Positions 3 to 39,298 of a DNA stretch of 64,000 nt are shown here, in pieces. The translations under genes were made by a program, and so were the position numbers. The stretch comes from Candidatus Uhrbacteria bacterium (lineage in GTDB: Bacteria > Patescibacteriota > Patescibacteriia > UBA9934), in contig CAIKHN010000003.1 of NCBI GenBank assembly GCA_903827265.1, positions 24,392-88,391 of the forward strand, given 5' to 3'. The notes under the pieces are model-generated. The model searched no databases, was not told the origin of the DNA, and was given only the letters and a program-made list of their open reading frames with translations. Within the stretch, counting starts at the first letter, position 1, and every line of letters begins with the position of its first letter.

Positions 3-194
3 CTCGAAAAGTATTTGCCAGCGCAAATGACCGATGGCGAGCTCGAGGAGAGAGTACGTGCAAAGCTTGCTGAGCTCGGTATTACCGACATGGCATCGGT
101 TGGCAAAGCAATGGGCGCGCTTATGGCGGATTTGAAGGAATTTGCTGACGGCTCTCGTATTAAGGCGACAGTCGATAAGATTCTCAAGAAGTAA
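3..194 (+). CDS. GatB/YqeY domain protein, C-terminal fragment (5' partial)
   Basis: Frame-3 translation ...LEKYLPAQMTDGELEERVRAKLAELGITDMASVGKAMGALMADLKEFADGSRIKATVDKILKK* matches the conserved C-terminus of YqeY/GatB-like proteins. The start lies outside the window. Confidence 0.6.
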   Translation, partial: LEKYLPAQMTDGELEERVRAKLAELGITDMASVGKAMGALMADLKEFADGSRIKATVDKILKK

Positions 195-16149: not shown

Positions 16150-16296
16150 AACTTCCTCCTTCGGCCCATTTTCGACTCAGATCATCGGAAACTCACTCGA
16201 CGTACACATGAAGTACGCCTCGCGAGCTTTCCTTGACCTTCATCGAAACTGGTCGCGAATGAGAAAGTTCTACTATGTTATAATTCTGTTCGAGTT

Positions 16297-22542: not shown

Positions 22543-22546
22543 CTCT

Positions 22547-23035: not shown

Positions 23036-23050
23036 CGCAAAAATAAAACA

Positions 23051-23073
23051 CAGCCCTCGCGGGCTGCGTTTTT
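23051..23073. terminator. Bidirectional rho-independent terminator between convergent genes
   Basis: cagccc-tcgc-gggctg hairpin followed by cgttttt on the plus strand; the minus strand has an A/T tract upstream that mirrors it. Confidence 0.6.
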
Positions 23074-23079
23074 GAGATT

Positions 23080-23301
23080 TTACACCTTACATGATTTGCA
23101 CTTTCCGCAGAAAAGCATCGCAACCGCTGAAAGACCAACGAGCATGTAGACAATATTCTCAAGTGTGCCTCCGGAGATTCCTCCGAGAAGGGAATGAACG
23201 AGGTTCCACTGGAAGAAGCCCCAAAGTCCCCAGTTCAATGCACCGACCCAGACCAATACGCCAGCAACCTTGTGTACCGTACATTCGCCTTTGCCCATCA
23301 T
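23080..23301 (-). CDS. DUF378 family small membrane protein
   Basis: 73 aa. GALNWGLWGFF...VYMLVGLSAVAML matches the DUF378 consensus. Confidence 0.7.
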   Translation of the reverse strand: MMGKGECTVHKVAGVLVWVGALNWGLWGFFQWNLVHSLLGGISGGTLENIVYMLVGLSAVAMLFCGKCKSCKV

Positions 23302-23377
23302 AGGAAAACGATTAGGGATTAATTCCTAAAGAAAGCATACATGGAAAACGCCTATCACCCTGTTTGCCTGTGGAAAA

Positions 23378-24376: not shown

Positions 24377-24435
24377 ATTTCTCTATTCTTGCATAACAAA
24401 AGTTCAAGAGCAAACCATGAGGCCGTACACCCGGA

Positions 24436-24933
24436 TTACATTGTTTGCTGATGCTCTTCTTGTAATGTTCGCATTGCTCGACTCAATGCGTCGGTATCAA
24501 AATAAAAATTCGTATCGCGATCAGCGCCTGTTGCCGGGTTCGAATCTTCATTGCCCATGTCGGCATCATGAAGTGTATGGAATATGGTCTCGCCACACAG
24601 TTTGGAGTCGGTAGCCCGTACTTGTGTACCACCAAAGCCTGTGCGTGCACGATTGAATAATGCCACCCGATCATCGGCTGCCTCCACCTCTTCCATTCGA
24701 CCTTCGAGTGCTTCGCGTGTCATATGAACGCCGAGTGCAGTCAGTTTTTCGGAAATCTGATCCAGGAGGATTTCTCGAATGTCATCGGATTCCTCATTCT
24801 CGACATACTCGTTCACTGCGAGACGAATTTCTTCGACTGCTTGAGCAATTTCCGGGATAATTTCGTGTGTAACGTGTCCTTCATCATTTGTGACGAGCAC
24901 TGCGTCTGGACGGGTTTCAAAATTTCCGAGCAT
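24436..24933 (-). CDS. Hypothetical acidic protein
   Basis: 165-aa ORF with coherent codon usage. No recognisable motif. Confidence 0.4.
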   Translation of the reverse strand: MLGNFETRPDAVLVTNDEGHVTHEIIPEIAQAVEEIRLAVNEYVENEESDDIREILLDQISEKLTALGVHMTREALEGRMEEVEAADDRVALFNRARTGFGGTQVRATDSKLCGETIFHTLHDADMGNEDSNPATGADRDTNFYFDTDALSRAMRTLQEEHQQTM

Positions 24934-25009
24934 ACATTCTTTAATGATTTAATGATAATCCTTACGAGTGTAATTCACTTGAGCAATTTCATGAAAGGAG
25001 CCGTGTTGA

Positions 25010-25426
25010 TTACGCGTTTTTTATCACTTTATTCTCGGGAAGGCTCGGGGTTCGCGCACTGAGCATTGTTGTTGTTTCGTAGACCTCAAGCACGGCTTCG
25101 TCGACGTTCGACCTCATAAATACAAAATCACCGTCACTCAAAATGCGCTCTTCACCGCCAATGAGATATTTCACTTTTCCGTGAATAATAAAATTTATTT
25201 CCGTGCCTTGAGGATGAAAGTGCGTGCCCTGCGTTTCGCCTGGCTGAAGCACGCTATATTTCACCTCGAGTTCGGAGGTTTTCATAGGGTGTCCTTCCGG
25301 GAGAAAATGTCCGCAAATCCATCCCCGCGTTGTAGAGCAGTTTTGTATATTGTCGATGACGTATTTTGTCATAATAAGTGGGGGAGTTTGAAAGATCTCG
25401 TTCATATTAACATGAAATTTGTGCAC
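25010..25426 (-). CDS. Cupin domain protein
   Basis: GETQGTHFHPQGTEINFIIHGKVKY...GDFVFM, the two cupin motifs G(x)5HxH...G...G. The start is uncertain; a shorter form starts at MKTSELEV (25285). Confidence 0.6.
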   Translation of the reverse strand: MHKFHVNMNEIFQTPPLIMTKYVIDNIQNCSTTRGWICGHFLPEGHPMKTSELEVKYSVLQPGETQGTHFHPQGTEINFIIHGKVKYLIGGEERILSDGDFVFMRSNVDEAVLEVYETTTMLSARTPSLPENKVIKNA

Positions 25427-25522
25427 AGATCATCTCTTGAAAATTTTTGGGGAAAAGAAGAGCGCGTCCCATCGGCAGAAAGCCGAGGGACGGCTTCTCT
25501 GTTTGGGGCGCGCGAGTTGTGA

Positions 25523-26158
25523 TTACGCGGATGTGGTTGGGGGCGTCAGGGTGAAGCGGTAGCCGGAAGAGATGAATGTGAACCCTCCCTCCGCCGTCCT
25601 GGACCCGTCCTTGCACGAACCGCTCATGTAGTCGACGTCGACCCACGAACACGGCTCATTGATTGGGTCCTCTACTTCCTGTGTAGCGAGAGTGGGCTCC
25701 TTGCTTCGCACGCAGTCCGGATCGATGTCCTTGATGCTGTATTTGCGGAAGAAGAGCCGCACACCGTGCTCACGCGGATGCCGGCCGACAACCGCCTCGT
25801 GCCACAGCACCCGCGCCCGCTTCTTCGGTCGCTTGATGGACACCGTCCACCCGACGACATCGCCTTCGCCCTTCATGAAGAGCACGGCGAGCGCGTCCAC
25901 GATGCCGGCCATGCTCTCGCGGTTGCGCGATGCTTCCGCCTGGCTCTTCTCCCACGCCAGGTGTATCTCACGCGGAACGTTGTCCATGGGGAACGTCGTC
26001 TGTCCTCGACCCATCATCTCGTTGAGCCCGTCGCTGATGATCTTCGCCTGCTGTTCTGGGCTCAGTGCATCCCATTGTTCGCGATATTTGCCGAGGATCT
26101 CCTGCGTCCGGGGGTTCACAACGTAACCCCCATTTTCCTTTGCTCTTTCCTTCGCCAT
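25523..26158 (-). CDS. Hypothetical protein in a high-GC (about 60%) segment
   Basis: Start MAKERAKE at 26158 is preceded by a GGAGGTG SD. No recognisable domain. GC is well above the window average. Confidence 0.45.
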   Translation of the reverse strand: MAKERAKENGGYVVNPRTQEILGKYREQWDALSPEQQAKIISDGLNEMMGRGQTTFPMDNVPREIHLAWEKSQAEASRNRESMAGIVDALAVLFMKGEGDVVGWTVSIKRPKKRARVLWHEAVVGRHPREHGVRLFFRKYSIKDIDPDCVRSKEPTLATQEVEDPINEPCSWVDVDYMSGSCKDGSRTAEGGFTFISSGYRFTLTPPTTSA

Positions 26159-26228
26159 TTGCACCTCCGAGTGCAGTATAAAGGTAGTGGGTTCACTCCG
26201 AAAAGTCAACAAAACGCGCGAGGCGAGA

Positions 26229-26495
26229 TTAGCGCTGGCCGCGAGGCCGGGGTCGATGGCCGCGCGGCGGGTGCTCTGTGAGGACGGTGTCGACGAAGGA
26301 GTCTCTGCAGCCTTCGTGCGCTACTCCATTGGCGTGTAGCTCAACCCGATGAGTGGGCCATTCGTCGGTGATTGGCTCGTTGCAGATCGTGCACGTGCTC
26401 GGAGGCGCAGGCGGCGTTGGTGCAGCCATGAATTCTGCAAGAGAGGTGAACGGGCTTGCCGCGATGAGTGAAGTAATACCAGATCGTGGAGACAT
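26229..26495 (-). CDS. Small zinc-ribbon protein (CxxC...HxxC)
   Basis: 88 aa, CTICNEP...HEGC. It lies in the same high-GC segment. Confidence 0.35.
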   Translation of the reverse strand: MSPRSGITSLIAASPFTSLAEFMAAPTPPAPPSTCTICNEPITDEWPTHRVELHANGVAHEGCRDSFVDTVLTEHPPRGHRPRPRGQR

Positions 26496-26580
26496 GGGAC
26501 CTCTTGGGTGATGATGAGATTATCATGATTGATGAAAGAGGGAAACGAACGTTGGCATTTCCCATTCGCCAATAGAAAAA

Positions 26581-26607
26581 CACGACCGGTGTGGTCGTGT
26601 TTTTCTG
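26581..26607. terminator. Bidirectional rho-independent terminator at the island boundary
   Basis: aaaaa-cacgacc-ggtg-tggtcgtg-ttttt. On the minus strand it terminates the 33787->26676 operon. Confidence 0.65.
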
Positions 26608-26615
26608 GCGGGACG
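26601..26615 (+). repeat. Distal att direct repeat (ttttctggcgggacg), a partial copy of the tRNA-Asp 3' end
   Basis: Perfect 15-bp match to 38370-38384, which spans the tRNA-Asp 3' terminus, in direct orientation. Confidence 0.6.
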
Positions 26616-26675
26616 TGGTGGAACGGGTAGGAATGCATTTTATGGCTATTTCAATTTAGAGGGGACAGCTTCTTC

Positions 26676-27212
26676 TTAATCTTCGTATTTTACAGTCCAA
26701 TGGGGTGAGCCAGTATGAAAGGAATTGGCAGAAACCTCAAAATCTCCAATACTTGTTATCTTATTTCCAAAAATGTCCTCGTAAGTTAAATTCAAGTCCA
26801 CGTTTTGTCCCCTAATCCCGTTCCAAACAGCTTCGTTCTCGGGAAGAGTCTCAGAGCGCGTCCAGGCGATGCTTCCATCTGGTTTGACAGAAGATGTGAG
26901 TTTTTTTGAGAAACCCAATTTAGGCACACTAAGGTTTATATTTTGAGCCAAACCTTGGCCTACGTTTTTGAAGCGAACCTCAAAGTAAAAATCTGTGCCT
27001 TGTCGTTCCGAGCCGACGACTATTTCGTCTGGCTCGAGAATCGGCATCAATGATGCCTGAGTTGCTCTTTTTGCTTCGAGGGCGGACTTAGCGGATTGTT
27101 TTGCGGAATACAAAGAGATAAATGCCGCAAGCACAGTTCCGATCGCTGCAATAACATCCCATGTATTGTTATTTTGCAGAGATACAAAGTGATGATGGAG
27201 ATTTTCGTACAT
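26676..27212 (-). CDS. Hypothetical membrane-anchored protein (third gene of the island operon)
   Basis: 178 aa, N-terminal TM WDVIAAIGTVLAAFISLY, low GC. It lies 42 bp downstream of the giant NTPase gene on the same strand. Confidence 0.5.
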   Translation of the reverse strand: MYENLHHHFVSLQNNNTWDVIAAIGTVLAAFISLYSAKQSAKSALEAKRATQASLMPILEPDEIVVGSERQGTDFYFEVRFKNVGQGLAQNINLSVPKLGFSKKLTSSVKPDGSIAWTRSETLPENEAVWNGIRGQNVDLNLTYEDIFGNKITSIGDFEVSANSFHTGSPHWTVKYED

Positions 27213-27253
27213 AGTTTCATTGTTGCAAAAAGGATCTGTATTCTGCCTTGCGT

Positions 27254-30200
27254 TTAGGGCGTACGCGGCGGAAGAAGGATGGGGCTTACATTTAATAAGC
27301 GATATTGTTCAATTTTCTTCACTTCTCCGTAGCCGTGTTCTTGATAGCGATACGTAGATTTTACCAGGTATCCCATCCTAAGTCCGTTTTGAGCTAGACA
27401 CTCTTCCAAAAACGCTTTATCGATTCGTAGCCACTGGCCGTAAGGCAAAGGCATATCGAAATTACTTCTCTCTTTCAGTCCCTCTATCCAGTCGCCATGC
27501 GTAATTTTCTCTCCGTTTTCATCGCTGTAGACATACTGAAAATCCTGAATTTCGCCTATGGAATCCCGTCTGATTCCTGGAGCGGGCAAGAGTTGAAGCT
27601 GGTAATCTCTGAAGTATTGCCAGAGATTTATGGTCAGATCTCGAGTCCGTGCAACTAGAGGGTAGACCATCAAGTCTTCTATTCGAGTCGGATCTAACCC
27701 AATCGGATATAGGCACGCCGCAGGATTGTCCAAAAAACTCAAAGGATAAGGAGTGTGTATTGGAATCAGGGCAAGACTTGATCTATCTAGTATTAATTCC
27801 GAAACCGCCTCCGCGGTTGGCATATTGGAGCCAACAACTTCGTAAGCAAAACCTATAAGAGAAATTGAATGAGAAGGATCGAGCTTTTCCGCAAGCGCAG
27901 GCATAACCGCGCCCTCAAAGGCCAAAAACGGTTTATCCTGGTTATTTGTGAGAATTGATTCAATTGGGATCTGCAGATCAATTTTAGTTAGATCCGTTTC
28001 CGCCATTTGACCTTCAGCTAGTCTCGGCCACCAGTCTGGAATTCTACCCACTAGTTTTTGCCAAATCCCCAGATCTACTGGCAATGTTGCATATGAGTAT
28101 TCAAGATAGAAATCTTCCGCGATCTTTCCATCCAAATAATACTGGTGGACTACTCTGAGAAACGCCGATCTGTATGCCTCGCTGAGAGATGTAGACATAC
28201 CTGGGATTGATGCCCCGCGTTCTCTTCCCTGGAAATACCCGGCGTCAGCGTTTAAGGAAATCCCGTTTTCTTGGATTAGGATCGATGAAGTGTACGCCCA
28301 TTGTTGAAGAAAACGACCACCGGTTTTTTTATCTATTTCTTTGGCCCGTTCGTGATAAATCGGAGCCAGAAAAGACCTGATGTGTCTATTGAAAAAGTTG
28401 TCAGCCAGAAAGGCGGAAGGCACGGCAGAAACCGCCCCAAAGGCGGGTAAAGCTTCATCGTCAAAATCTTCACCCAGAAGGAATGACAGCTCTACGAGCA
28501 ATTCTTGAATTACAACTGAATTTACACTCAAACTCAGAACGATGTCAGAAAACTTTATGTAAGAAAGCTCATCTCCCTTGCTTAGCGAGAAGGCTCTGAT
28601 CAAGGGTAAGAGGTGAATCGCAACAATGCTCTCAAGACAGATTTGCTTCAGGTTAGTTAAAAAATTTTTGTATAATTCCTCGCGCTTTGAAGAGAAGACG
28701 AATAATTGAGCGATTGCTGTTGCTGTTCGTTCGCGAACTAACGGACTTGGCCACGTCAGCCTTTGTATTAAAAGGTCAAATTCATCCGGTTCCTTCTCAG
28801 CATACTTAGCGTCCCCCCAGATGGGTTTGGCCAACTTAGTCTCAGCCATTAGCGATTCCGCGAAAGTGATTCCCGCCTCGGTGATTGCCACGGCATTTAC
28901 TAGATCCCCAAATAACACAAAGAAATCAACGGCACGCGCTATTGGCACAAAATATCTTAGACCACTGTCCCACCTATTACCTACAGCGATACTCCTTTCA
29001 AAAAATTCTAAATAACGCGTCGGATATTTATCTTGCAGAAACACCCAACGTGCCTCAGCTTTATTCTTATCCGTCCAATATAATTGCCAGCCATTGTCAT
29101 TAGCTTGCGCTCGACAAAGCAATTCGAATGCGCGTCCATTCTCGAATTCGTAGGCCAATGGATAGAGCACATCAAGTAGCTCGCCGCCCAGGTGATTTAG
29201 CTCCGTTTCAGGCACTGCCGCCATGAAACTCCTATAGATTTTTTCTTTATCATCATTCTCCAACCAATGAATAAGCCACCCATGTAAATATGTCTCCCGT
29301 TCCCAGGGGCTGCCGAAGGTTCTTTCTCTCAAGTTCTGCACTAATAGATCAGGAGAAACGCTACTAAAGTCCTCGGTGGAAGCCGGTCGAATGTATGGAG
29401 TCGAAGCATCTTTTTCTGGGTAAGTTATTTCTCCAAAGTAATCCGTAATAATACTCAAAGCTTTAGCAGCCCCTTCTTGTTTCTGTGCAAGGATGCCGAG
29501 CGACTTATATGAATCCTCATCAAGAGCTGTTGTTGCTAGTGCGGTAGATACGTCGGAATCATACGGCAATGACTGAACGATGACTTCGAAGATATCTTCT
29601 GCGTGAAATAAGTTCCCCGAGTCTGCATTTACATAGTAATCCTTATATAGAGCCGATCGATCAGATTTTCCAAAGATTTGAGCAAGATTCAGTGAAAGAT
29701 GATTAGTTTCATCTCCATCTGTATATTCAGTTACATTTTCTACAATCGGTGCAATCGATGCCAGCCAATGATGCATTTTTACTGCTTCAACACCTGCTGA
29801 TCCACAAGCCGAAATAGCATCCAGCACTCCATCTAGGTACATGTCCTTGTGATAGCCGTATCCGAGAAGATTTTTTGCAGAATCTAAAAGTAACTCTTTT
29901 GCACGTTCAGTGTCTCTCTGAATCCTGCAAAGTGCAGCAAGATCAGCGAAAGAGGTAGTCCTTTCTGAAAAATATCCGACTGATCCCTTAAGATTTTTAA
30001 CTTGCGTCTCGATAAATTGGATATGCGCATCGTCCACGAAGACAGGCTCACCCTGCTTAATGGAGAGTTCCAACAAATTAGCTGCATTAAAAAACGGAGT
30101 GCTCAGAATCGATGAGACGTCCCCGGGGGTAAATTGATACGAAGATCCAAGAGCCTTTTTTAGGATCAATAAATCTGAAAGATTTAAGGAAGTCGATGCC

Positions 30201-33166
30201 GTAAATGCCACTTGTAGTCCAAGTAAGTCGCGATCTTTCTCCCAGGTCAGTTTTCTGAGGGATTGCAGCGGCGCAAACAAGAGATGGTAGTCGATTTTGG
30301 ATTCACTTTTAATCTTTTGTGCAATCGCAAGACAACTACTTAGAAGAGCTGCAGATGCCTCAGATGCCCACATTTCCGGGGCAGCGTCTATCCAGCTTTT
30401 GACTTCTTCACCTTCATCTAGGAGCCCGTATAACAAGCCTGACAGGAATAGATCATGGAAAAATTTAGTCCACTTTTCTCTATCCAAATTCTGATACTCC
30501 TGAACTTTTATTGGAAGAGTTTCATACGCGGGGAGCGCTGGAAGTTTAACAGAAGGGTCTCCTTTTAACGCCCTGTAAACTTCATAGAGCGGAACAATAT
30601 GTCCAATCAGATTCTCTTTAAACTTTTCCGTTGCGTGAGTAACGTCGTATTTTGCGCATTTATCAAGGACGTCTCCAACCGTCTCGGGTGCAATTTTTTG
30701 TTGAAGAAGAAGTTTAACCTTCTCAACTTGATCGAGAGTTAAAAGCTGTGACGCATAAATAGCTAGTAAGTCTTGAGACCAACCCAAATCAGAAAATTGA
30801 GCTACGTATTTAGTTACCTTCTTCACCTCGTGTGTGCGGTCGTACGGAATCACCGTTACTAGAGCCTCGGTAATTTTTGGAATCTGGCCATTTTCTTTGT
30901 TCCGGTACTCCTGACGACCGTGCCTGCCCTGCAAGATCTCTATTACTTCCGGGATAATTACATCGCCAGACTTGTTGGCCATGTCAGCCGCGACAACAAG
31001 TGAAGTTGCGTCAAGATCCTTGAGCTTAAGTTCCTCGAGCATTCCTGGGTTCAGCCTTATCGCTTCAGCAAAAATACTTTTAGCCCCTTCTTCGGAAGAA
31101 TCCTTCGAGTTTGAGTAGTATTGTCGAAGATGGGAAAGCTGAAGAGCTTTGCCGAAATCCCGTTTTTTAAAAGCAGCCTCAGTTCCAAGTCGCAGGAGTT
31201 CTATGATCTGATAACTATTTCGAGGAAATGTAATTGCCTCAACAAGCCACTGTTTATCTAGCTTTAAAATGAGCTCAGGATTCCCGGTTTCGAATTCAAT
31301 TTTTGCTAGCTCCGCCCAGCGTAAAGAGTCGTAAGGGCACCCTACCAACCAGTCTTTAATTTGTTTCTTGAGAACTGCTTTACGCTCATCAAAATCAGGC
31401 TGTTGAAGAAGAAACACTTCAAAACTGTTGTGATAAATCGAGATTCGACCCTGTATATCAATCTTCGTGAGATGTTGTACATCTCTAAAGGCTTCAGCTA
31501 TATCCGAAGGGCTTGTCTCGAAGGAAGAAATGCAACCGATCAACTGTTCTTTTGTGAACGCAAAATTAACGCTCGCGATAGTGCAGAGAATGGTCTTCGC
31601 CTTATCGGAAAGATGCCACCATAAGGTCGTGTAGTAGCTCGCTATGTTGCCGCCGTATGGCAGGAGATCTTTGATGGTGTATTCGGTTATCAATGTATTA
31701 CCGTATCGCGACTTAATTTCGTTAAGAACGTAGCGAAGGTGAAGCGGATTGCCTTGGGTGAGGCTGAAGATTTTACTAACTACCTCTTTCAAAGCGCTTT
31801 CTTCCGACGGAAGATTAATGTTCACCGAGTTTTTTCTAATGATTCTATTTGCAGCATCATGGCTCAGTCCAGTGATCTTGATCCATTCTGCAACTGGGCA
31901 CTTTTGCAAGATTATTAGTGGTAGGTGTTCAGAGATCTGTTCTTGTGTACCCAAAATAATCCATAGGCCTCTTTGGGGGAAGCAGACGCTTTGCAGGAAC
32001 TTTTTCAGTTCCTCAATGTCGGCGTGTCTAACTACATGATCAAGGCCATCAACAATTAAAATAAAAGCTTTATTTTTTTGATTTGCAAAAGAAGCCGCAG
32101 CATTAATAAATTCTACTGGCGGAATTGATTGAGAATTTTTATGGGCAAGATCTCCCAAGGCATCCGGATATTCCTTGAATTGTGCCTTAATGGCTTCAAT
32201 AACCCTCTCCGCATTTAATCTTTCTTGTGAGTTAGTTTCCTCAGGCGAAAGATGGTAATGATGCCTTACGGACATTACTTCTTTATCCTCAAGAGTTGAG
32301 TATAATTTTGAAAGGTAGACACTTTTGCCCGTCCCTGGATTTCCAGTAAATACCTTGATCCCACCTTCAACTTTTTCTAAATCCTGAAGGATATTTTCAT
32401 GCACTGTCTCGTCAAAGAATTCAAAATCATTAGGGACAAAAAAGTCCTCTTCTAAACTTCTGGGAGCATCAAACTCGCACCAATCACGTAACTGGCCAAG
32501 GCTAATCGGTTGCGTCGGACTTTTTCTACTCTCTTTTTTTATCTGATTAAGGAGATTGACGACACCATTCTCTGTTGCGTTTAGATCCTTGTAGAAACGT
32601 TCAAAAATTTCCCTTTCGAATTCATCCAGGACTTTTTGTCCAAAATTAAAACTAAACTGTTCAAAGAAACTAGCCGCAACATCTTCTTCACCGATAGCTG
32701 CAATAATCTTTGCAAACAGATCGCTATCCGATGCTTTTATTGCACCGAGGTTGATCTTTTTATCGTCGCCTAAGAAACGGACTATATCAGCCTCAGCTCC
32801 GCTATCCGTGACCAGGCCCGCATACTTTATTTTGCCTTTAAGATCCCCCTGCTCGATAGAGTCAGCCCATTTTTTGAGCCAGGATGGTTTTCTTTTTTTC
32901 CCTACGAGCAGATCATCCCAAGACCATAGATTTTGCGGATCTTGTCGGTGTTTGACTTGATAAAAGTGGTAAAAGTCATCCTTGTCACGCAATATTATGT
33001 CGTCTAAATAAAAACCATCTGTACCGGATTCCTCGGGCGCAGCTTCAAATCGGATCGACCTAAAAGAATCGGGGTCGACTAGCCAATCGCGGCACAGTTT
33101 CAACCCCCAAAGATCCTGATAATCAAATCCGCTTCTAATCGAACTTGTAGTATTTCTTCGGGTCAT
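27254..33166 (-). CDS. Giant STAND/NACHT-type P-loop NTPase with N-terminal PD-(D/E)xK-like nuclease domain and about 1400-aa C-terminal helical repeat region (Avs-like antiviral candidate)
   Basis: 1970-aa uninterrupted ORF. The N-terminus is SGFDYQDLWGLKL...IRFEAAP...GFYLDDIIL...HFYQVKH (a D...QxK restriction-endonuclease-fold pattern). Walker A is GNPGTGKS; Walker B is AFILIVDGLDH, followed by GTQ. The rest is a long alpha-helical sensor-like region. GC is about 40% against about 50% in the flanks. Confidence 0.7.
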   Translation of the reverse strand: MTRRNTTSSIRSGFDYQDLWGLKLCRDWLVDPDSFRSIRFEAAPEESGTDGFYLDDIILRDKDDFYHFYQVKHRQDPQNLWSWDDLLVGKKRKPSWLKKWADSIEQGDLKGKIKYAGLVTDSGAEADIVRFLGDDKKINLGAIKASDSDLFAKIIAAIGEEDVAASFFEQFSFNFGQKVLDEFEREIFERFYKDLNATENGVVNLLNQIKKESRKSPTQPISLGQLRDWCEFDAPRSLEEDFFVPNDFEFFDETVHENILQDLEKVEGGIKVFTGNPGTGKSVYLSKLYSTLEDKEVMSVRHHYHLSPEETNSQERLNAERVIEAIKAQFKEYPDALGDLAHKNSQSIPPVEFINAAASFANQKNKAFILIVDGLDHVVRHADIEELKKFLQSVCFPQRGLWIILGTQEQISEHLPLIILQKCPVAEWIKITGLSHDAANRIIRKNSVNINLPSEESALKEVVSKIFSLTQGNPLHLRYVLNEIKSRYGNTLITEYTIKDLLPYGGNIASYYTTLWWHLSDKAKTILCTIASVNFAFTKEQLIGCISSFETSPSDIAEAFRDVQHLTKIDIQGRISIYHNSFEVFLLQQPDFDERKAVLKKQIKDWLVGCPYDSLRWAELAKIEFETGNPELILKLDKQWLVEAITFPRNSYQIIELLRLGTEAAFKKRDFGKALQLSHLRQYYSNSKDSSEEGAKSIFAEAIRLNPGMLEELKLKDLDATSLVVAADMANKSGDVIIPEVIEILQGRHGRQEYRNKENGQIPKITEALVTVIPYDRTHEVKKVTKYVAQFSDLGWSQDLLAIYASQLLTLDQVEKVKLLLQQKIAPETVGDVLDKCAKYDVTHATEKFKENLIGHIVPLYEVYRALKGDPSVKLPALPAYETLPIKVQEYQNLDREKWTKFFHDLFLSGLLYGLLDEGEEVKSWIDAAPEMWASEASAALLSSCLAIAQKIKSESKIDYHLLFAPLQSLRKLTWEKDRDLLGLQVAFTASTSLNLSDLLILKKALGSSYQFTPGDVSSILSTPFFNAANLLELSIKQGEPVFVDDAHIQFIETQVKNLKGSVGYFSERTTSFADLAALCRIQRDTERAKELLLDSAKNLLGYGYHKDMYLDGVLDAISACGSAGVEAVKMHHWLASIAPIVENVTEYTDGDETNHLSLNLAQIFGKSDRSALYKDYYVNADSGNLFHAEDIFEVIVQSLPYDSDVSTALATTALDEDSYKSLGILAQKQEGAAKALSIITDYFGEITYPEKDASTPYIRPASTEDFSSVSPDLLVQNLRERTFGSPWERETYLHGWLIHWLENDDKEKIYRSFMAAVPETELNHLGGELLDVLYPLAYEFENGRAFELLCRAQANDNGWQLYWTDKNKAEARWVFLQDKYPTRYLEFFERSIAVGNRWDSGLRYFVPIARAVDFFVLFGDLVNAVAITEAGITFAESLMAETKLAKPIWGDAKYAEKEPDEFDLLIQRLTWPSPLVRERTATAIAQLFVFSSKREELYKNFLTNLKQICLESIVAIHLLPLIRAFSLSKGDELSYIKFSDIVLSLSVNSVVIQELLVELSFLLGEDFDDEALPAFGAVSAVPSAFLADNFFNRHIRSFLAPIYHERAKEIDKKTGGRFLQQWAYTSSILIQENGISLNADAGYFQGRERGASIPGMSTSLSEAYRSAFLRVVHQYYLDGKIAEDFYLEYSYATLPVDLGIWQKLVGRIPDWWPRLAEGQMAETDLTKIDLQIPIESILTNNQDKPFLAFEGAVMPALAEKLDPSHSISLIGFAYEVVGSNMPTAEAVSELILDRSSLALIPIHTPYPLSFLDNPAACLYPIGLDPTRIEDLMVYPLVARTRDLTINLWQYFRDYQLQLLPAPGIRRDSIGEIQDFQYVYSDENGEKITHGDWIEGLKERSNFDMPLPYGQWLRIDKAFLEECLAQNGLRMGYLVKSTYRYQEHGYGEVKKIEQYRLLNVSPILLPPRTP

Positions 33167-33232
33167 TCATTGCTGTTAATGCAGATGTAGATTATCTCGT
33201 TTTAATGTCTTTGTCTTCTTGATTGTGATTAA

Positions 33233-33787
33233 TTAGAAAGATAGCTCCGTTTGCTTTCCATTCAAGCCTTGCGGGTGATAGACGAATTCCTCGTAGTCAG
33301 TGCTCGAATTCAAGCTATACAAGGCCATAAAATTCGCGTCGTAAGCCCCGTCCAATTTCTTTGAGTACAGGTCTTTCTGTGCCTCGGCAAAGAGCACGGC
33401 AGATTCCTCCGTCTTGAACACTGCTATCTTGGCAAACGTGTTGTTTCCGAATTCGGTGTGCAACTGCTTTCCTAGCGCCGTCATGGACTCATTGTTTAGA
33501 TACTGCTCCTGCACGACGATGGATTTCCAAATATAACCATTCTCCGAGTTGTCCCAGACGACCTCGTAAGGAATTTTTACCTGTGCCACTTCGTGTTTTT
33601 CTTCTGAACTCTCTATCATTCCAACCATGGCTATTGGCAAGAAAAACATAACCATCAAAACAGTGAGAATTGGATGTCTCCAAAACCATGATCCCAATTT
33701 CGCCCGGCAGTAGGGACAGCGTCTCGCCTTTGTATCAACCTCTTTACGGCACGATGAACAGGTCTTCACCTTTGGTGCGTCACTCAT
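33233..33787 (-). CDS. Zinc-ribbon membrane protein (first gene of the island operon)
   Basis: Preferred start is MSDAPKV at 33787; the ORF track extends to 33844. CSSCRKEV...CPYCRAKL zinc ribbon, then TM ILTVLMVMFFLPIAMVGMI, then a 130-aa extracytoplasmic domain. It lies 66 bp upstream of the NTPase on the same strand. Confidence 0.5.
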   Translation of the reverse strand: MSDAPKVKTCSSCRKEVDTKARRCPYCRAKLGSWFWRHPILTVLMVMFFLPIAMVGMIESSEEKHEVAQVKIPYEVVWDNSENGYIWKSIVVQEQYLNNESMTALGKQLHTEFGNNTFAKIAVFKTEESAVLFAEAQKDLYSKKLDGAYDANFMALYSLNSSTDYEEFVYHPQGLNGKQTELSF

Positions 33788-34099
33788 ATTGGCTCGATAA
33801 ATATTTATTAAGATTGAAAGGCGCGCAAAAACAAAAAGCGACACCCGGTGGTGTCTCTACCCAACCCATGCACGGATAGTGCACAGACTGTTTTAACCGG
33901 ATGCCGCTTTATGGGCGCTATCCGGAAATAGGCAAAAAAATGCCCTGTACGGGTTGAGTAGAGACTTCCGAAGTGTATAACAATGATCAAGGTTATTCAA
34001 CATCACGCAACATTTACCAACAGTGGTGTCAAAATTTGCGTGAGTTTACAAAAGAGGAGAAAATTACCGTAATCTAAATAAGAATGCGAATAAGAATCT

Positions 34100-34801
34100 A
34101 TGAGGAATGATGGTGTACGTGACCTGCATCTTGCGGTCGCATGGTCGTGTCGACGATTGGAAAAATTACTTGCGCTTGACCCTAAGTGCAGTGAGGTGAC
34201 TTATTGGTTCGCTCCCGACACGTCGGATGAAAAAGCTCCGCCACTCGGGGATCAAGTATTAGCCTTGAGCTATCTGGAAAACCAACAGGCGCTCGAGATC
34301 GGGCAAGCTGTCTATCGAAATGAGCTCTATAATCGCGTCGGTGCTCCAGAAATGTTCGGCGCGAAATCTGATGGCTATCGCGTGGAAATAGTTTCTAAGA
34401 GCTTCGAGAGAATCTGCAAAGAGTTACGTCCACTCATAGATAAGCTTGGTGTCTACCTTGTTCGCGCTGACCATGATTTTAATGACTTGAAACAGCCGAT
34501 TCTTGTTTTTGAGAATAAAGGCGCGGATTTTTACGTAGAGTTCAGCGGCGAACGAGTATCCATCAAACAACACTCTCGACAATTTGGCCTATTGGCGGCA
34601 TTAAAAGAACAGCGAGGACGTCATCTACCGGAAAAGGAATGTATTGAGGCGGCAAATCATTACGTGACCAAAGGGAAAACATTTATTACGGGCAAAGATA
34701 TTTACTTCACTCTTCGTGACATTAAGAAAAAGTTAAAAGTTGGAAAAAGTTGCGTTTTTCCAATCGAGCTAGAGAATAATCAGTATATTTGGCGCAAGTA
34801 A
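34100..34801 (+). CDS. Hypothetical protein (island cargo)
   Basis: 233 aa, divergently transcribed from the NTPase operon. No recognisable motif. Confidence 0.4.
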   Translation: MRNDGVRDLHLAVAWSCRRLEKLLALDPKCSEVTYWFAPDTSDEKAPPLGDQVLALSYLENQQALEIGQAVYRNELYNRVGAPEMFGAKSDGYRVEIVSKSFERICKELRPLIDKLGVYLVRADHDFNDLKQPILVFENKGADFYVEFSGERVSIKQHSRQFGLLAALKEQRGRHLPEKECIEAANHYVTKGKTFITGKDIYFTLRDIKKKLKVGKSCVFPIELENNQYIWRK

Positions 34802-34859
34802 ATAAAAACTCAACTCTCTCAACAAAACCTTCCACAATCGTAAATAGAGCCAACATGAA

Positions 34860-35132
34860 ATGCTCTCGGTGCAAAACATCGTGAGCATTTTTATGTCTGA
34901 TACATATACGACCACCAACTTCTATCTCGCCGCATTCCTCTGTGCATCAGGGGTTGTTTTTGTGTCGGGAGAGCGGTTGGCGGATACACGCCAGACAGCT
35001 TTTCACTTCGAAGAATCAATGAAACGCAAAGAGCTTTCAAGTGCGTTTCTTGTTGGTGAAGAAGTGGAAGTGAATGTTCATGCGTTTATTGCGCAGCTCA
35101 AACGTTTGAAATCAATCATTCACGACGGATAG
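34860..35132 (+). CDS. Small hypothetical protein (island cargo)
   Basis: 90 aa. An alternative start is MSDTYTT at 34893. Confidence 0.3.
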   Translation: MLSVQNIVSIFMSDTYTTTNFYLAAFLCASGVVFVSGERLADTRQTAFHFEESMKRKELSSAFLVGEEVEVNVHAFIAQLKRLKSIIHDG

Positions 35133-35440
35133 CTCGAATAATACTGGCCGATCAGGGTGCGCGAACCACTGTGCCCCGGCTGGATGCGACTTAAATCAGT
35201 GGATACATGAACCCGCGCCGATCCCCGCGTTATCCCGGGATGCGTCATAGGCAGTAAGGGCATGAACGTCACGAAGCGCTGATATGCCAAGGCGCACGTG
35301 CGTAAACGAAGTTAGCTCTACCGGGCGCTTCGATAGCAGGCATTGCAGGACGTCGGAGAGAAATCCGATCAACGTCCGAAGTATTCGCGTGATACCGCTT
35401 TATTCCCCATTTTGCGTCTCGGCAGTAAGGCAGAAAGAAT

Positions 35441-35830
35441 ATGAAAGACAATCGATTCCAAAAGATCATCTCGGACTACTTAGGACAATTGATCGGTACG
35501 AACGAAGAGGAAGCTTGGAACGTTCGTATGAACGGAAAACGGGCGCAAGTCACCATCCGTGGGCCTACGGGAATCTTGAAGAAAACCATCTCTCATCCCG
35601 GCTCACTTCTAAAGAAAAACTTTCACGATGAGCTAAAAAAGATAGGGAATGTTCAAAAAAAGGCCAATGTCATTTCATACCCGTTAATACAGCGGATTAA
35701 AGCGTTTCGGTTGGTAAAGCTGACCAGAAAACGCGGGAAAAGACAGTCATTAAAGTACGCAATAAAAAAACAGAGTGAGGAGACGGAAAGTAACAGGACA
35801 CGTGCACGTTTTCGAAATCAAAAGATTTAA
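35441..35830 (+). CDS. Small basic hypothetical protein (island cargo)
   Basis: 129 aa, Lys/Arg-rich C-terminus. Confidence 0.3.
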   Translation: MKDNRFQKIISDYLGQLIGTNEEEAWNVRMNGKRAQVTIRGPTGILKKTISHPGSLLKKNFHDELKKIGNVQKKANVISYPLIQRIKAFRLVKLTRKRGKRQSLKYAIKKQSEETESNRTRARFRNQKI

Positions 35831-35849
35831 AATCATAACAAGTAAAAAT

Positions 35850-36245
35850 ATGCATTCAGAACATCGAGAGCCCACAAAAGAAGAGGTGAGTGTAATAGAA
35901 AAGATCGACCTCGATTTGTGCGGAAGGGCTTTGGCAGGCGCTCTTTGGTTTCATGCCTACGATCAAGAGACATTGGTGCTGGATAAGGATGGTCTGGAAT
36001 GGTTGGTGTGGGAGCTTCTTGATGAACTCAGTCTTTCCGGCTTCATGTACCAAACAGTTTCTACCTTTGCAGAAAATAGCAAAATAAAACCTGTGGAATG
36101 TGCTGAGTGCAAAAAAGAAAATGGAGATGAAGAAGACGGAGATGGAATCAACTCACCATGCCCTAGCTGCGAACAGCCTCTGACCGCAGAGGCGGAATTA
36201 CCGCCTCTACCGCCACCGGGTTGTTCTGAGAAATCTGATTTTTAA
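35850..36245 (+). CDS. Small zinc-ribbon protein, paralog 1 (AYDQE-LxLDxxGL family)
   Basis: MHSEHREP start. WFHAYDQETLVLDKDGLEWLV core. C-terminal CAECKK...CPSCEQ. Confidence 0.45.
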   Translation: MHSEHREPTKEEVSVIEKIDLDLCGRALAGALWFHAYDQETLVLDKDGLEWLVWELLDELSLSGFMYQTVSTFAENSKIKPVECAECKKENGDEEDGDGINSPCPSCEQPLTAEAELPPLPPPGCSEKSDF

Positions 36246-36249
36246 ACCT

Positions 36250-36621
36250 ATGCACATCACGGATCCGAAAGGCTCGGAAGAATGCTCGGCCTGTTACGGA
36301 ACGGGGATCATTCCTAAATCGTCCGCAACCTCTGACCACTCGACCGAACCAATTTCGCACATCTCAGATTACATGCAGGAAATGCGCTCGATCTTCCTAA
36401 ACACAAAGAATAGGACGGTTTTTCAGCGAGTAGATTTAGCCGAAGATCTTTGGATCATTGCCTATGACCAAGAAGATTTAATTCTAGATGACGAAGGGCT
36501 CAAGGATCTCTTAAACATTTTCCTGTTCGGCTCTCATTATTACGATTCAATTCGTGACGCAATTAGTAAGTATATCGATAAATACGTTATGAACCGCGAT
36601 GCAGAAGAAGTGAACGAGTAA
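36250..36621 (+). CDS. Small zinc-ribbon protein, paralog 2 (AYDQE-LxLDxxGL family)
   Basis: N-terminal CSACYGTG. WIIAYDQEDLILDDEGLKDLL core homologous to the preceding gene. Confidence 0.45.
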   Translation: MHITDPKGSEECSACYGTGIIPKSSATSDHSTEPISHISDYMQEMRSIFLNTKNRTVFQRVDLAEDLWIIAYDQEDLILDDEGLKDLLNIFLFGSHYYDSIRDAISKYIDKYVMNRDAEEVNE

Positions 36622-36778
36622 ACAAAAGTTGCCTGTGCATCTCCCTAACGAAATCAAGACAGAAATCCGATTGCTGTTCTCCCGCCCCGGAGAGCAGCTT
36701 TCGGATTCTGACGTTGAGGAGATTGCACAGAACCTTTTGTCATTCGCCCTTCATCTATCACCTGCAAAGGGATAGAAT

Positions 36779-38416
36779 ATGACCATGAAGTATTTCATCT
36801 ATTGTCGCCGATCAAGTGACCGGGAAGACAAACAAACGCTCTCCATCGATGCTCAAATTCGTGAGCTAAAGGTGCTCGCAGAAAAAGATCATCTAGAAAT
36901 CGTTGACACCATCGTGGAATCACAATCCGCCTACAAAACAGGGCGGCCATTTTTCAATTCAATGCTTGAGCGCATCGAGCTTGGACAAGCAGACGGGATC
37001 ATCGTATGGCAACCAAATCGTCTTGCCCGTAATTCCTTAGATGGAGGGCGGCTGATCTACATGATGGATCAAGGGTCATTGAAAGAGATCCGCACCATGT
37101 CCAAGCTCTTCACGCGATCCGGTAACGACAAGTTCTTTTTGCAAATCGAATTTGGCATGGCAAAGAAGTCATCCGATGACACTTCGGATTACATGAAGCG
37201 TGATGCTCAATCCAAACTTCTCAAAGGCGAATGGACGGGTATGGCTCCCGTTGGTTATTTGAACGTTGATGCGCAAGGAAAGATTGCGGGCAACTTTTAT
37301 GATCACGACAAGCAGACACAACTATTAAAGCTTGGCAGGCCATTGCGCCGAATTGAAAAAGACCCGGTGCTAGCGCCCCTTATACGTCAGTTTTTTGATT
37401 ACTATCTTGCAGAGTACCGAACCTTGAAAGAGGCGGCGGCTTTCATGAATTCTCTCGGGGTTAAAAGTATCCGCCGTCATGGTCGCTATTCCATCAGCAT
37501 GGTGGAGAGAATTTTAAAGAATCCTTTTTACACCGGGCAGCTTCGGTATGAGGGGGAGCTTTTTGCTGGTGTACATGACCCCATCATTAGCACGAAGGAA
37601 TTTGAATTGATTTCGCAACGGTTTAACGGACACTCTCACCCAAAAGTAGTGAGTTACGATTTTGTGTATCGAGGGCTCGTGCGATGCGCTGAATGCGGTT
37701 GTTCCGTGGTGGGAGTCCACAAGGTAAAGCCTTCCGGTAAGGAGTACGAATACTACACGTGTAGTAAGCGCAAAGGTGAATGCGGCCAGAGACCATCAAA
37801 ACCTGCAGACATCGATATTCAGGTCGAAGAGCGTCTTCGTGCCATTCAAATAGATGAACGCGTGTGGGAGCTGTGCAAGAAGCTCTTACACCTTCATTAC
37901 GCGGAGCAAGTGGATAGCCAAGTCCTCATTCGTGAAAAGTGGCAAAAGGATCTCGGCAATGTCGATAAACGTACAAATGCCTTGTTGGAACTCTATATCT
38001 CGGGTTTGCTCGATAAAGAGGACTACACTAAGAAGAAAAACGAGTTGTTGTCTGAAAAGATGGCTCTGACAGAGAAGCTTAGTGACAGCGGGCAAGCGAC
38101 GACCAATTGGCTGCAGCAGACCGAAGACTTCTTTGGGTTGGCTCATGCCGCGTATGAGATATTTAAGAGCCCTCAGACGACGTTGGCACGCAAGAAACAG
38201 ATTGTGCAGGACATCGGTTGGAACTTAGAGATTTCCGAGGGAAAGCTTAATTGGCAATACAAAAAGCCGTTTGATTTTCTTGTAGAGCGACAACCAGCGA
38301 AAGTTTCGGTTGGAACTCGTAAATATGGCTTAGCTAAAAAGAAAAACACCTCTCTCGAAAGAGAAGTGGTTTTCTGGCGGGACGGACGGGACTCGAACCC
38401 GCAACCTCTGCCGTGA
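36779..38416 (+). CDS. Large serine recombinase (integrase)
   Basis: 545 aa. Resolvase catalytic domain YCRRSSDREDKQTLSIDAQ, then VWQPNRLARN, then a recombinase domain, then zinc ribbon CAECGCSV...YYTCSKRKGECGQ, then coiled coil. The 3' end runs 42 nt into tRNA-Asp. Confidence 0.8.
   Translation: MTMKYFIYCRRSSDREDKQTLSIDAQIRELKVLAEKDHLEIVDTIVESQSAYKTGRPFFNSMLERIELGQADGIIVWQPNRLARNSLDGGRLIYMMDQGSLKEIRTMSKLFTRSGNDKFFLQIEFGMAKKSSDDTSDYMKRDAQSKLLKGEWTGMAPVGYLNVDAQGKIAGNFYDHDKQTQLLKLGRPLRRIEKDPVLAPLIRQFFDYYLAEYRTLKEAAAFMNSLGVKSIRRHGRYSISMVERILKNPFYTGQLRYEGELFAGVHDPIISTKEFELISQRFNGHSHPKVVSYDFVYRGLVRCAECGCSVVGVHKVKPSGKEYEYYTCSKRKGECGQRPSKPADIDIQVEERLRAIQIDERVWELCKKLLHLHYAEQVDSQVLIREKWQKDLGNVDKRTNALLELYISGLLDKEDYTKKKNELLSEKMALTEKLSDSGQATTNWLQQTEDFFGLAHAAYEIFKSPQTTLARKKQIVQDIGWNLEISEGKLNWQYKKPFDFLVERQPAKVSVGTRKYGLAKKKNTSLEREVVFWRDGRDSNPQPLP
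38370..38384 (+). repeat. Proximal att direct repeat overlapping the tRNA-Asp 3' end
   Basis: ttttctggcgggacg is identical to 26601-26615. It covers the 3' terminal 10 nt of the tRNA (including CCA) plus 5 nt of flank. Confidence 0.6.
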
Positions 38417-38451
38417 CAGGGCAGCGCTCTAACCAGTTGAGCTACCGACCC
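38375..38451 (-). tRNA. tRNA-Asp (anticodon GTC)
   Basis: Reverse complement GGGTCGGTAGCTCAACTGGTTAGAGCGCTGCCCTGTCACGGCAGAGGTTGCGGGTTCGAGTCCCGTCCGTCCCGCCA. It has a cloverleaf, a CTGTCAC anticodon loop and an encoded CCA. It is close to E. coli tRNA-Asp. Confidence 0.85.
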
Positions 38452-38607
38452 AAAAGAATGTTTCCATGCTTTTTGAGTCTGTTTGAAGCGCTGATAGGAT
38501 ATCAATAGGGGGATTTTTTGACAAGTATTGGTGTGAGGAAATGTGTAGAAAAGACGTGTGCCCGACTCTCCGGAGAGAATCGGGCACAGTGTAGCCCTTG
38601 CGTGGAG

Positions 38608-39060
38608 CTACTTGGTCGTCGCGGTGTCGGTGCCGGTATCGGTCCCGGTGTCGGCCGGGGGGTCACCGCACTCGCCACCATCCCATGCGATGATGCATCG
38701 GACGGTCAGCCCGGTCGCGAGGACGACCGGCTCCGTGGAGCTGGCGACGAGGTCGCTCTCGACCACCCAGTACGGGGCGCCATCCGCGGCCACCGACATC
38801 GCCCACTTGGACGGCTTCCCGTCCTTGTCCGCCCCGCGGACGATCCCTTCCGCCAGCACAGCTCGCGGGGTGGTTCCGTCGCAGTAGAAGAGCGGCGCCT
38901 TGCCGGAGGCGAGGTCGTCGGTCCACAGCAGGTGGCCGGCGGCGAACGTGGTCATCGTCACCCCTGGGGGCGGGGTGCACGAGGGGCCGGTGGCCTTGGG
39001 GATGTCGCCGTTGCAGGCAACGAGGAGGATGGTGAGAGGCAGCGGCGCGATGATGCGCAT
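38608..39060 (-). CDS. Lipoprotein in a high-GC (about 70%) patch with C-terminal DTGTDTGTDT repeat
   Basis: Start MRIIAPLPLTILLVAC (lipobox), GGAG SD. The overlapping plus-strand ORF is judged to be an antisense artefact of the high GC. Confidence 0.5.
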   Translation of the reverse strand: MRIIAPLPLTILLVACNGDIPKATGPSCTPPPGVTMTTFAAGHLLWTDDLASGKAPLFYCDGTTPRAVLAEGIVRGADKDGKPSKWAMSVAADGAPYWVVESDLVASSTEPVVLATGLTVRCIIAWDGGECGDPPADTGTDTGTDTATTK

Positions 39061-39298
39061 GGGAACTCCGTTCTTCGTGGGACGCGCCGGCATAGGGGAA
39101 TCCCTTTGCAGACGACTCAGAATTATGCCAGAAAATCGTGATTTGGTCAACTATACGTTATAAAAACGATGTATTTTTCTTGCGGTAAAACGGGGGTATA
39201 ACTCCGCTGAGTGTGCTCGATTTTCTGGTACAATAGTTGCGTATCTGCGCAACTCTTTTTGTATGCACGTGTGCTGATATCTGGATTTTGCGTCGCCT

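Follow-up and report, generated by a model that had tools for sequence, protein, structure and literature searches.

A tRNA-Asp-linked island with a large serine recombinase and candidate defence cargo in a Candidatus Uhrbacteria-like chromosome

Introduction

Serine integrases are workhorses of large-cargo genome engineering, and bacteria of the candidate phyla radiation (CPR) have almost no genetic tools. Serine integrases were believed to keep away from tRNA genes, at which tyrosine integrases classically insert. The present study concerns a 64-kb stretch of a Candidatus Uhrbacteria-like (Patescibacteria/CPR) chromosome, hereafter the window, in which the segment 26601-38384 is very probably an integrated mobile island that was inserted in tRNA-Asp by its own large serine recombinase (LSR).

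Among the described systems, the phage-type LSRs (A118/LI, Bxb1, phiC31, TP901-1 and SPbeta SprA) share with the window enzyme the order of resolvase, recombinase and zinc-ribbon domains, and Ser12 together with arginine residues. A short identity core and related attachment sites of the element (attP) and of the host (attB), with the distal motif 5 bp farther out in attP, are also common to both. However, the similarity between them is very low, the best solved relatives being matched at E ~1e-4 over the catalytic domain only. In contrast to the protein-coding targets of the phage-type enzymes, the target in the window is the 3′ end of a tRNA gene, and attP lies in the 3′ coding end of the integrase gene itself, with an antisense terminator in the same codons.

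Islander/TIGER islands and tycheposons resemble the window island in lying on the 3′ side of a tRNA gene, in having a repeat with the tRNA 3′ end, in placing the integrase beside the tRNA, in carrying defence or adaptive cargo and in using a hotspot repeatedly. Both of these groups employ tyrosine integrases almost exclusively, whereas the window recombinase is a serine enzyme. Serine integrases at transfer or transfer-messenger RNA (tmRNA) genes made up 14 of 297 cases in one study, where such use "has not been reported previously" and needed proof (Mageeney et al. 2020, PMC7192596), and an LSR occurred in 27 of 937 tycheposon-type elements (Hackl et al., bioRxiv 10.1101/2020.12.28.424599). 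The likeness to the staphylococcal cassette chromosome SCCmec and its Ccr recombinases is generic only, consisting of large serine recombinases, short direct repeats and the 3′ end of a conserved housekeeping gene as the target; the window target is tRNA-Asp instead of rlmH (orfX), and a single recombinase is present instead of a pair. Kinship with SCC/Ccr was rejected on the NCBIfam scores for CcrA (57.2 bits, cut-off 700), CcrB (54.5 bits, cut-off 900) and CcrC (52.1 bits, cut-off 900), and the SCC-type analogy drawn in an earlier reading of this DNA made without database searches (the sequence-only reading) is therefore generic at most.

Boundaries of the island

Two copies of the 15-bp direct repeat TTTTCTGGCGGGACG lie on the same (plus) strand, a distal copy at 26601-26615 and a tRNA-proximal copy at 38370-38384. 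An exact search reproduced both copies, which the sequence-only reading had pointed out, and found no third one in the whole 64-kb window even when two mismatches were allowed. ARAGORN placed tRNA-Asp(GTC) at 38375-38451 on the minus strand, in agreement with the earlier proposal that the right copy consists of the last 10 nt of this tRNA plus 5 nt of flank. The tRNA is intact, is 100% identical to the tRNA-Asp of the relative L013 and represents the right arm of attB. From the base composition, a second exact 15-mer is expected 5e-5 times in 40 kb of one strand, and a match to the 10-nt tRNA part alone 0.05 times; the chance figure of 0.004 given previously was right about the rarity of the repeat and conservative in its value. 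The guanine-cytosine (GC) content is 0.443 between the repeats (26616-38369) against 0.521 in the rest of the window, so that the low-GC character of the island holds as a contrast, with values of 44% and 52% in place of the 40% and 50% first reported.

Immediately left of the distal copy, a terminator hairpin with a T-run (ACACGACC..GGTCGTGT; 26580-26600, minus strand) has homologues in the relatives L009 and L008. This hairpin is the native downstream flank of tRNA-Asp, that is, the left arm of attB, which is now parted from the tRNA by the island.

A scan of species-representative genomes anchored on pyruvate kinase retrieved the closest relatives, which belong to Candidatus Uhrbacteria (Patescibacteria) and have pyruvate kinases 72-90% identical to that of the window. 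The island is lacking in all nine close syntenic relatives. Their flanks align, from FtsZ/NrdR/pyruvate kinase to a beta-lactamase-like gene and, on the other side, to L20/IF3 where the contig reaches that far, and nothing in 26660-38330 aligns to them except one 112-nt match of 72% in L011. In L009, tRNA-Asp abuts ACACGACCC..GGGTCGTGTTTT, a homologue of the hairpin left of 26601 over about 30 bp, and a homologous host hairpin is found at the same place in L008. The search for an empty site suggested by the sequence-only reading thus gave the expected outcome in these relatives. As in described tRNA islands, a repeat with the tRNA 3′ end bounds DNA that is absent from relatives.

The same island in another host and a circular relative

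The closest homologue (79%) of the main cargo gene, which encodes a NOD-like receptor (NLR)-like protein described below, is found on the Logan contigs L177/L178. There, an island with 78% nucleotide identity to that of the window over 6.4 kb is likewise located at tRNA-Asp. The order in L177 is tRNA-Asp, a hairpin of the window type, an LSR fragment, the NLR gene, a 51-nt stretch that is 94% identical to window 26597-26646, CCGCCA and an unrelated host terminator. The pyruvate kinases of the two hosts are only 39% identical, and the sole other nucleotide match between the window and the L177 loci is L20/IF3 at 65-68%. In one direction the homology stops at the tRNA, in the opposite direction at 26597-26646. 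As it starts and ends at the two repeat copies, the boundaries of the island are fixed and its transfer between diverged hosts is evident; we infer some cell-to-cell route for this transfer. Missing from the L177 copy are 33629-37865, where the window has the small genes and the LSR's catalytic half, and 26647-27266. The LSR fragment of L177 corresponds to residues 364-545 (81% identity) and is fused to the 131-aa and NLR genes. L177 is thus an immobilised derivative that retains the defence gene.

Sister islands at tRNA-Asp carry related LSRs, namely L089 (62% identical), L025 (61%) and L179 (71%). The cargo of L089 includes a KAP nucleoside triphosphatase (NTPase), Ymh and a major facilitator superfamily transporter, and that of L025 consists of other genes. 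At the distal copy in both L089 and L025, a host hairpin is followed by TGGCGG(G) and a homologue of the 44-bp segment that adjoins the distal repeat copy in the window (26616-26659, plus strand; termed X35), as is also found at the distal end of L177.

A free form of this type of element is represented by L088. This contig of 8201 bp starts and finishes with the same 30 nt, as a circle does when assembled with k = 31. The L088 LSR gene (63% identical) runs unbroken through GTTTTC-TGGCGG into GGCGTAGTGGACGCGGTTGGAACTTATTTTGC, a homologue of X35. Therefore, DNA of the left island end, which is 11.7 kb away in the window, directly adjoins the 3′ end of the LSR gene in a free relative, and this junction is an observed attP. 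The junction of 38369 to 26616 predicted by the sequence-only reading accordingly exists as continuous DNA in this circular relative, the window's own strain having yielded no example. With island-free relatives, boundaries shared with L177 and the L088 junction, the earlier identification of a tRNA-Asp-linked integrated element is borne out.

On this basis, a circular form with attP would have recombined with attB, composed of the tRNA-Asp 3′ end and its terminator, and the island's own LSR would have catalysed the integration by a crossover inside TGGCGG. Such an integration would spare the body of the tRNA, would replace the native terminator behind it with an antisense hairpin and T-run of the element, and would swap the 14-residue tail VVERVGMHFMAISI of the LSR for the 10 antisense-tRNA residues GRDSNPQPLP.

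The recombinase and its C-terminal tail

The LSR gene (36779-38416, plus strand) encodes 545 aa with Resolvase, Recombinase and Zn_ribbon_recom domains (PF00239, 62.9 bits; PF07508, 53.2 bits; PF13408, 33.1 bits). In a 24-member family alignment, R10, S12, R81 and R84 and the zinc-ribbon cysteines C303, C306, C328 and C335 are invariant; the catalytic stretch of the window protein reads YCRRSSDRED, and a region of about 110 residues follows the Cys cluster. The stop codon (TGA) lies inside the antisense of tRNA-Asp, and the final 14 codons, from Trp533 on, are antisense tRNA-Asp. The integrated protein thus ends in ...VFWRD-GRDSNPQPLP*, in which W is the antisense of CCA and DSNP that of the T-loop. 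Both the domains and the position of the stop agree with the previous description of a large serine recombinase as the tRNA-proximal gene that reads across the repeat into the tRNA. After excision, the protein would end in ...VFWRD-VVERVGMHFMAISI*, with the stop codon at 26657-26659. No tyrosine recombinase (Phage_integrase domain) was found in the island with Pfam.

Directly upstream of the LSR gene, a conserved open reading frame (ORF) of 48 aa (36629-36775, plus strand) has counterparts of 55-69% identity at the same position in L088, L089 and L025. It has no Pfam family and is a candidate for an accessory factor or a recombination directionality factor.

Attachment sites and the crossover

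The two repeat copies of each island share 15 bp in the window, TGGCGGG in L089, TGGCGG in L025 and CCCGCCA (tRNA strand) in L177. The core common to all is TGGCGG alone (26606-26611 and 38375-38380), which is the antisense of the terminal CCGCCA of the tRNA, i.e., the last two acceptor-stem bases, the discriminator base and CCA. The 15 bp of the window are composed of CGTC, where attP resembles the tRNA, the 6-bp core and GAAAA, with which both terminators begin alike; the other 9 bp are attP/attB resemblance. The 15-bp repeat exists as reported, and its functional part is about 6 bp long.

A base difference in L177 narrows the crossover further. The acceptor stem of tRNA-Asp in the window and in L009-L013 has a U4-U69 mismatch (3′ strand CCGTCCC), whereas the L177 tRNA-Asp (L177:8889-8965) carries the pairing A69 (CCGACCC). 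The attP arm of the element has T at the position equivalent to tRNA 69, and it is this T that stands in the distal copy of L177 as against A69 in the tRNA. The crossover is therefore 3′ of position 69 and within C/CCGCCA, i.e., within TGGCGG. The comparison of the four islands delimits the crossover to this hexamer, in which we infer the central dinucleotide to lie.

The right arm of attP is X35, which is continuous with the LSR 3′ end in L088. Counted from TGG, GGA is located at +14..16 in attP and attB alike. The conserved motif that follows differs in position, with CGAAC at +19..23 for attB (the antisense T-loop) and GGAA[C/T] at +24..28 for attP, as seen in the window (GGAAT), L088, L089 and L025; GAAC at +25 is also present in the distant attP-form members L140, L142 and L158. 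In the LI integrase, the contacts of the recombinase domain are fixed and the motif for the zinc-ribbon domain is 5 bp nearer the centre in attB (Rutherford et al. 2013, PMC3783163). The 5-bp shift in the right arm matches this published model, and the right-arm motifs may be protein contacts.

When window 38331-38384 is joined to 26616-26662, the L088 pattern is obtained, with 74% column identity (alignment A2). The predicted sites are an attP of about 60 bp around GAGAAGTGGTTTTCTGGCGGGACGTGGTGGAACGGGTAGGAATGC and an attB of about 50 bp around GGTCGTGTTTTTCTGGCGGGACGGACGGGACTCGAACCC. attP is located within the last ~25 codons of the LSR gene. Homologous attP-type tails are observed in L088 (VVDAVGTYFAMV) and P0017 (IVEQVGTYYRIFV) and can be reconstructed for L089 (VVEEVGTYFMAVT) and L025 (IVEAVGIYFAS...). 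The conservation of these tails can be explained by a DNA-level constraint on the attP arm.

A predicted tRNA terminator within the integrase gene

The left arm of attP (38331-38369, minus strand) was identified in a terminator scan as a putative tRNA-Asp terminator supplied by the element, with a hairpin at 38347-38368 and a T-run. It is encoded antisense within the LSR codons KKKNTSLEREVV. On the tRNA strand, CCA is followed by the hairpin and then by TTTTCTTTTT in the window, in L088, L089 and L025, and in the LSR scars of L011 and L009. The RNAalifold consensus of these six elements or scars is a hairpin of 16 pairs, seven of which show compensatory double changes. The protein encoded on the opposite strand reads KKKN-TSLEREV, KKKS-ASSVEEA, KKKT-TSLEGEV and QKKV-ASAIAEA. 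The element would thus furnish the tRNA with a new terminator in exchange for the native one that it pushes away. If so, integrase tail, attP and tRNA terminator are coded compactly within the same ~90 bp. A strict search for a hairpin plus T-run was positive in 10 of 46 integrated family loci versus a background of 6%; the embedded terminator as a trait of the whole family was dropped on this count, and it is limited to the tRNA-Asp subfamily, where the covariation backs it.

The recombinase family and tRNA targeting

The window LSR has more than 1200 homologues, whose named sources are Patescibacteria, Peregrinibacteria, Peribacter and Magasanikbacteria. At least 61 of the 120 best protein homologues (35-77% identity) end in antisense-tRNA tails of the type W-x3-4-[DG][SL]N[PQR], and about 23 of these 120 have tails of the attP type, for example W..VVDDVRT[FY]. 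DNA was available for about 85 loci from metagenomes and viruses (30-35% identity), and in 46 of them the LSR stop lies inside or abuts a convergent tRNA gene. Nine kinds of tRNA are hit, namely Asp, Asn, Ser, Gln, His, Gly, Val, Lys and Leu, and Trp533 is invariant in the family alignment.

Taken as a whole, it is about an even call that these enzymes form a large, mostly CPR/Patescibacteria and apparently undescribed clade of serine integrases that targets nine kinds of tRNA 3′ ends. In such a clade, attP would be located in the last codons of the integrase itself, with the antisense of CCA as the conserved Trp, and the attP right arm would mimic the tRNA T-arm with a 5-bp offset. The tRNA-Asp subfamily would additionally code a replacement terminator, and the tail would toggle with integration and excision, which could feed directionality control. 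For CPR bacteria, a literature search returned no paper on tRNA targeting by serine recombinases. A whole serine-integrase clade on tRNA 3′ ends, where tyrosine integrases are classic, would provide candidate integration systems for CPR bacteria. The attP/attB pairs, one attP of which is observed, can be read from the sequence and used directly in recombination assays.

Many metagenomic contigs with LSRs of this family stop no more than about 100 bp from the 3′ end of the LSR gene (L090, L097, L098, L107-L110, L113, L115, L117, L125, L144, L163 and others). This would be expected if assemblies broke at att sites owing to the coexistence of free and integrated forms or of several tRNA copies. 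In the 11.6-kb contig L158, one attP-form LSR is found twice, at the two ends and inverted (324-1808 and 9759-11243), which reflects either a genuine inverted duplication or a hairpin artefact of the assembly.

Candidate defence cargo and other genes of the island

The largest gene of the island (27254-33166, minus strand) encodes a 1970-aa protein with an N-terminal Cap4-type double-stranded DNA nuclease and a NACHT/STAND NTPase. Pfam matches were obtained for Cap4_nuclease (34.2 bits, cut-off 26.2) and NACHT (29.4 bits, cut-off 26.7), and the motifs GNPGTGKS (Walker A) and ILIVDGLD are present. PADLOC gave partial matches to Avs1b (60 bits) and LmuA. Full-length homologues of 1950-1980 aa occur in several phyla; that of Thermoanaerobacter wiegelii is located directly downstream of TnsA-TnsB-TniB-TniQ as Tn7-like cargo, and one in Paceibacterota lies beside a BglII restriction-modification (R-M) pair. 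The protein is like Avs and bNACHT systems in being a large single protein with an N-terminal Cap4/LmuA nuclease, a central NACHT/STAND NTPase and a long C-terminal region, and in being carried on mobile elements and in defence neighbourhoods. It is unlike Avs in that the Avs1b match covers the NTPase alone, at 42-60 bits. The domains and the contexts of the homologues are in line with the candidate defence cargo anticipated in the sequence-only reading, and the protein is most likely a single-gene anti-phage NLR-like sensor-effector, an assignment drawn from domains and neighbourhood alone. On the other side of the balance, no Avs model reached its threshold (NCBIfam Avs1b, 42.3 bits versus a cut-off of 1500, over the NTPase region only), and no relative with a solved structure was found. 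The C-terminal ~1400 aa contain no annotated domain. We know of no member of this family that has been tested.

Upstream of the NLR gene, a small gene (33233-33628, minus strand; 131 aa as called) gave weak zinc-ribbon matches; it travels with the NLR gene in L177, where it is 78% identical. On the other side, a 178-aa gene with no assigned function (26676-27212, minus strand) had no Pfam, PADLOC or NCBIfam match and is absent from the L177 copy. A plus-strand module that ends in the LSR begins with a 233-aa gene (34100-34801), which is weakly similar to an ORF of the L025 island. It is followed by a DUF5659 gene (34860-35132, plus strand; 90 aa; Pfam 45.4 bits), which is also found upstream of P0003, an LSR 71% identical to that of the window. 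Three small plus-strand genes come next (35441-36621; 129, 131 and 82 aa as called), with no family match in Pfam, PHROGs or NCBIfam. In scaffold_132 and scaffold_49 of ERZ18648057 (L003 and L002), the island is split, and both contigs end inside it at about window 35130-35850. These ends fall between the DUF5659 and 131-aa genes, and the split may be strain variation in that segment.

The same tRNA-Asp has received other elements. A second LSR lineage (28% identical) is present at it in L010 and in L012 (L012:13177-18746), where it is accompanied by a type III R-M pair (ResIII helicase and N6_N4 methylase). In L011, a 418-aa tyrosine integrase (L011:14189-15573) lies at tRNA-Asp behind a 25-codon scar of the LSR 3′ end. 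Integration has thus recurred at the tRNA-Asp hotspot, one site with cargo that varies by genome: an NLR-like gene in the window and L177, a KAP NTPase in L089, a type III R-M system in L012 and a tyrosine-integrase element in L011. This has a bearing on how small CPR genomes gain and keep defence genes, one of which is retained after truncation of the integrase.

Alternative explanations

Several points count against an island that was inserted by its LSR and is mobile. The empty-site homology in L009 extends over only ~30 bp, and the L009 locus is itself rearranged. The circularity of L088 is indicated solely by its 30-nt terminal overlap. The left half-sites have no clear symmetry or 5-bp shift in a comparison by eye of four attP and four attB arms; the offsets of a left-arm CCTC motif are inconsistent (8 bp in L089). 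No directionality factor, transfer gene or replication gene was recognised in the island. For the window's strain, exact-protein look-ups with the LSR and both flanking genes gave no empty site or excised form (an 88-aa flank ORF was not on record in the same type of look-up). All 17-18 contigs with identical flank proteins, from several samples, carry the island, and it may therefore be fixed and inactive.

The last point leads to the strongest alternative, that the island was integrated by the LSR and is now a fixed, immobile resident, i.e., a domesticated defence locus. This is a real possibility, although its chance falls somewhat short of even. That such islands do become immobilised is evident from L177, where the LSR is truncated to residues 364-545 and the NLR gene is kept, and only scars of 45-60 bp from the LSR 3′ end are left beside tRNA-Asp in L009 and L011. 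However, the LSR ORF of the window is full length with all invariant catalytic and zinc-binding residues, both repeats are perfect and both attP arms fit the family consensus.

It is improbable, though worth weighing, that the island is a prophage or a phage satellite similar to phage-inducible chromosomal islands or tycheposons, with transfer by a helper phage. The best PHROG of the LSR is a phage integrase family, seven distant LSR relatives are located on IMG/VR viral contigs, and tycheposons at tRNA genes occasionally use LSRs (bioRxiv 10.1101/2020.12.28.424599). In addition, L088 encodes, at 1203-1589 and 6365-7135, a 128-aa protein with a weak small-terminase/helix-turn-helix PHROG match (3e-10) and a ParB-like protein. 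Against this, Pfam and PHROGs revealed no capsid, portal, large terminase, tail or lysis gene in the window island, 11.8 kb with one 5.9-kb defence gene leaves no space for a virion module, and the small-terminase match overlaps generic helix-turn-helix families and has no detectable homologue in the window. A prophage identity of the window island was rejected on the lack of virion, packaging and lysis genes in those searches. L088 also encodes a radical-SAM enzyme, a MazG-like protein and a Mutator-type transposase, and its genes hint that some members of the family are plasmid-like or satellite-like.

The repeat could finally be a by-product of tRNA 3′-fragment duplication at a rearrangement-prone locus, with the low-GC block brought in by another mechanism such as a lost tyrosine integrase and the LSR as a passenger, for which one might cite the tyrosine integrase abutting tRNA-Asp in L011, the extra tRNA-Asp 3′ fragments in L008 and L009 and the inverted orientation of the window tRNA relative to pyruvate kinase versus L009-L013; this is already disfavoured and very unlikely indeed, as four independent elements connect X35 with the 3′ end of the LSR gene over one common core, the island has no tyrosine recombinase and the 46 of ~85 distant family loci likewise end in antisense tRNA.

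Other observations at the locus

The orientation of tRNA-Asp differs among the loci: it points toward pyruvate kinase in the window (21139-38451) and in L008, and away from it in L009-L013. It also varies among more distant Uhrbacteria loci, and an LSR-mediated inversion, which was considered as an explanation, is for this reason not needed. In L009, the tmRNA gene is inverted relative to its flanks.

In L008 (L008:7351-8225), the same left junction as in the window is found, with the host hairpin, CTTTCTGGCGGGACG and X35. About 840 bp with one small ORF and no recombinase separate this junction from a tRNA-Asp 3′ fragment, and the contig end is an inverted copy of the tRNA 3′ end. The locus is a mini-island or a heavily deleted derivative. 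A GC-rich element of about 150 nt lies beside tRNA-Asp in L009 (L009:15344-15494) and L008 (L008:8199-8355, minus strand). It ends in the exact last 20 nt of tRNA-Asp, its 5′ end (GGGCGGA / GGGACGGA) pairs with this 3′ end in the manner of an acceptor stem, and it folds very stably (z = -6.7 and -5.8). No Rfam family matches the element, and the window has no copy of it. A tRNA-like RNA, a pseudo-attB and the remnant of an island are possible identities.

Just outside both island ends the GC content is high, up to 0.60 in 24416-26600 and up to 0.59 in 38452-39298, against 0.51 for the genome. These outer flanks contain ambiguous ORFs that overlap on both strands, and their DNA is not the same in the window as in L008, its closest relative, from which 24416-25452 and 25517-26213 are missing. 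Foreign DNA that entered this hotspot earlier may have left these layers.

An intergenic repeat of about 70-100 nt occurs in the window at 13583-13653, 16182-16252, 19147-19217 and 55518-55594; two of its copies form a 71-nt inverted pair 2.5 kb apart, and it is also found just upstream of tRNA-Asp in L009 and L011. To the right of the tRNA, a gene at 39299-46729 encodes a 2476-aa product with six tandem 234-nt repeats (42572-43999) and is not at the syntenic position in L009. Farther to the right, the tmRNA (48455-48853) specifies an unusually long tag peptide, ANAFSKVKAAIASAFSVPSFSLVTA.

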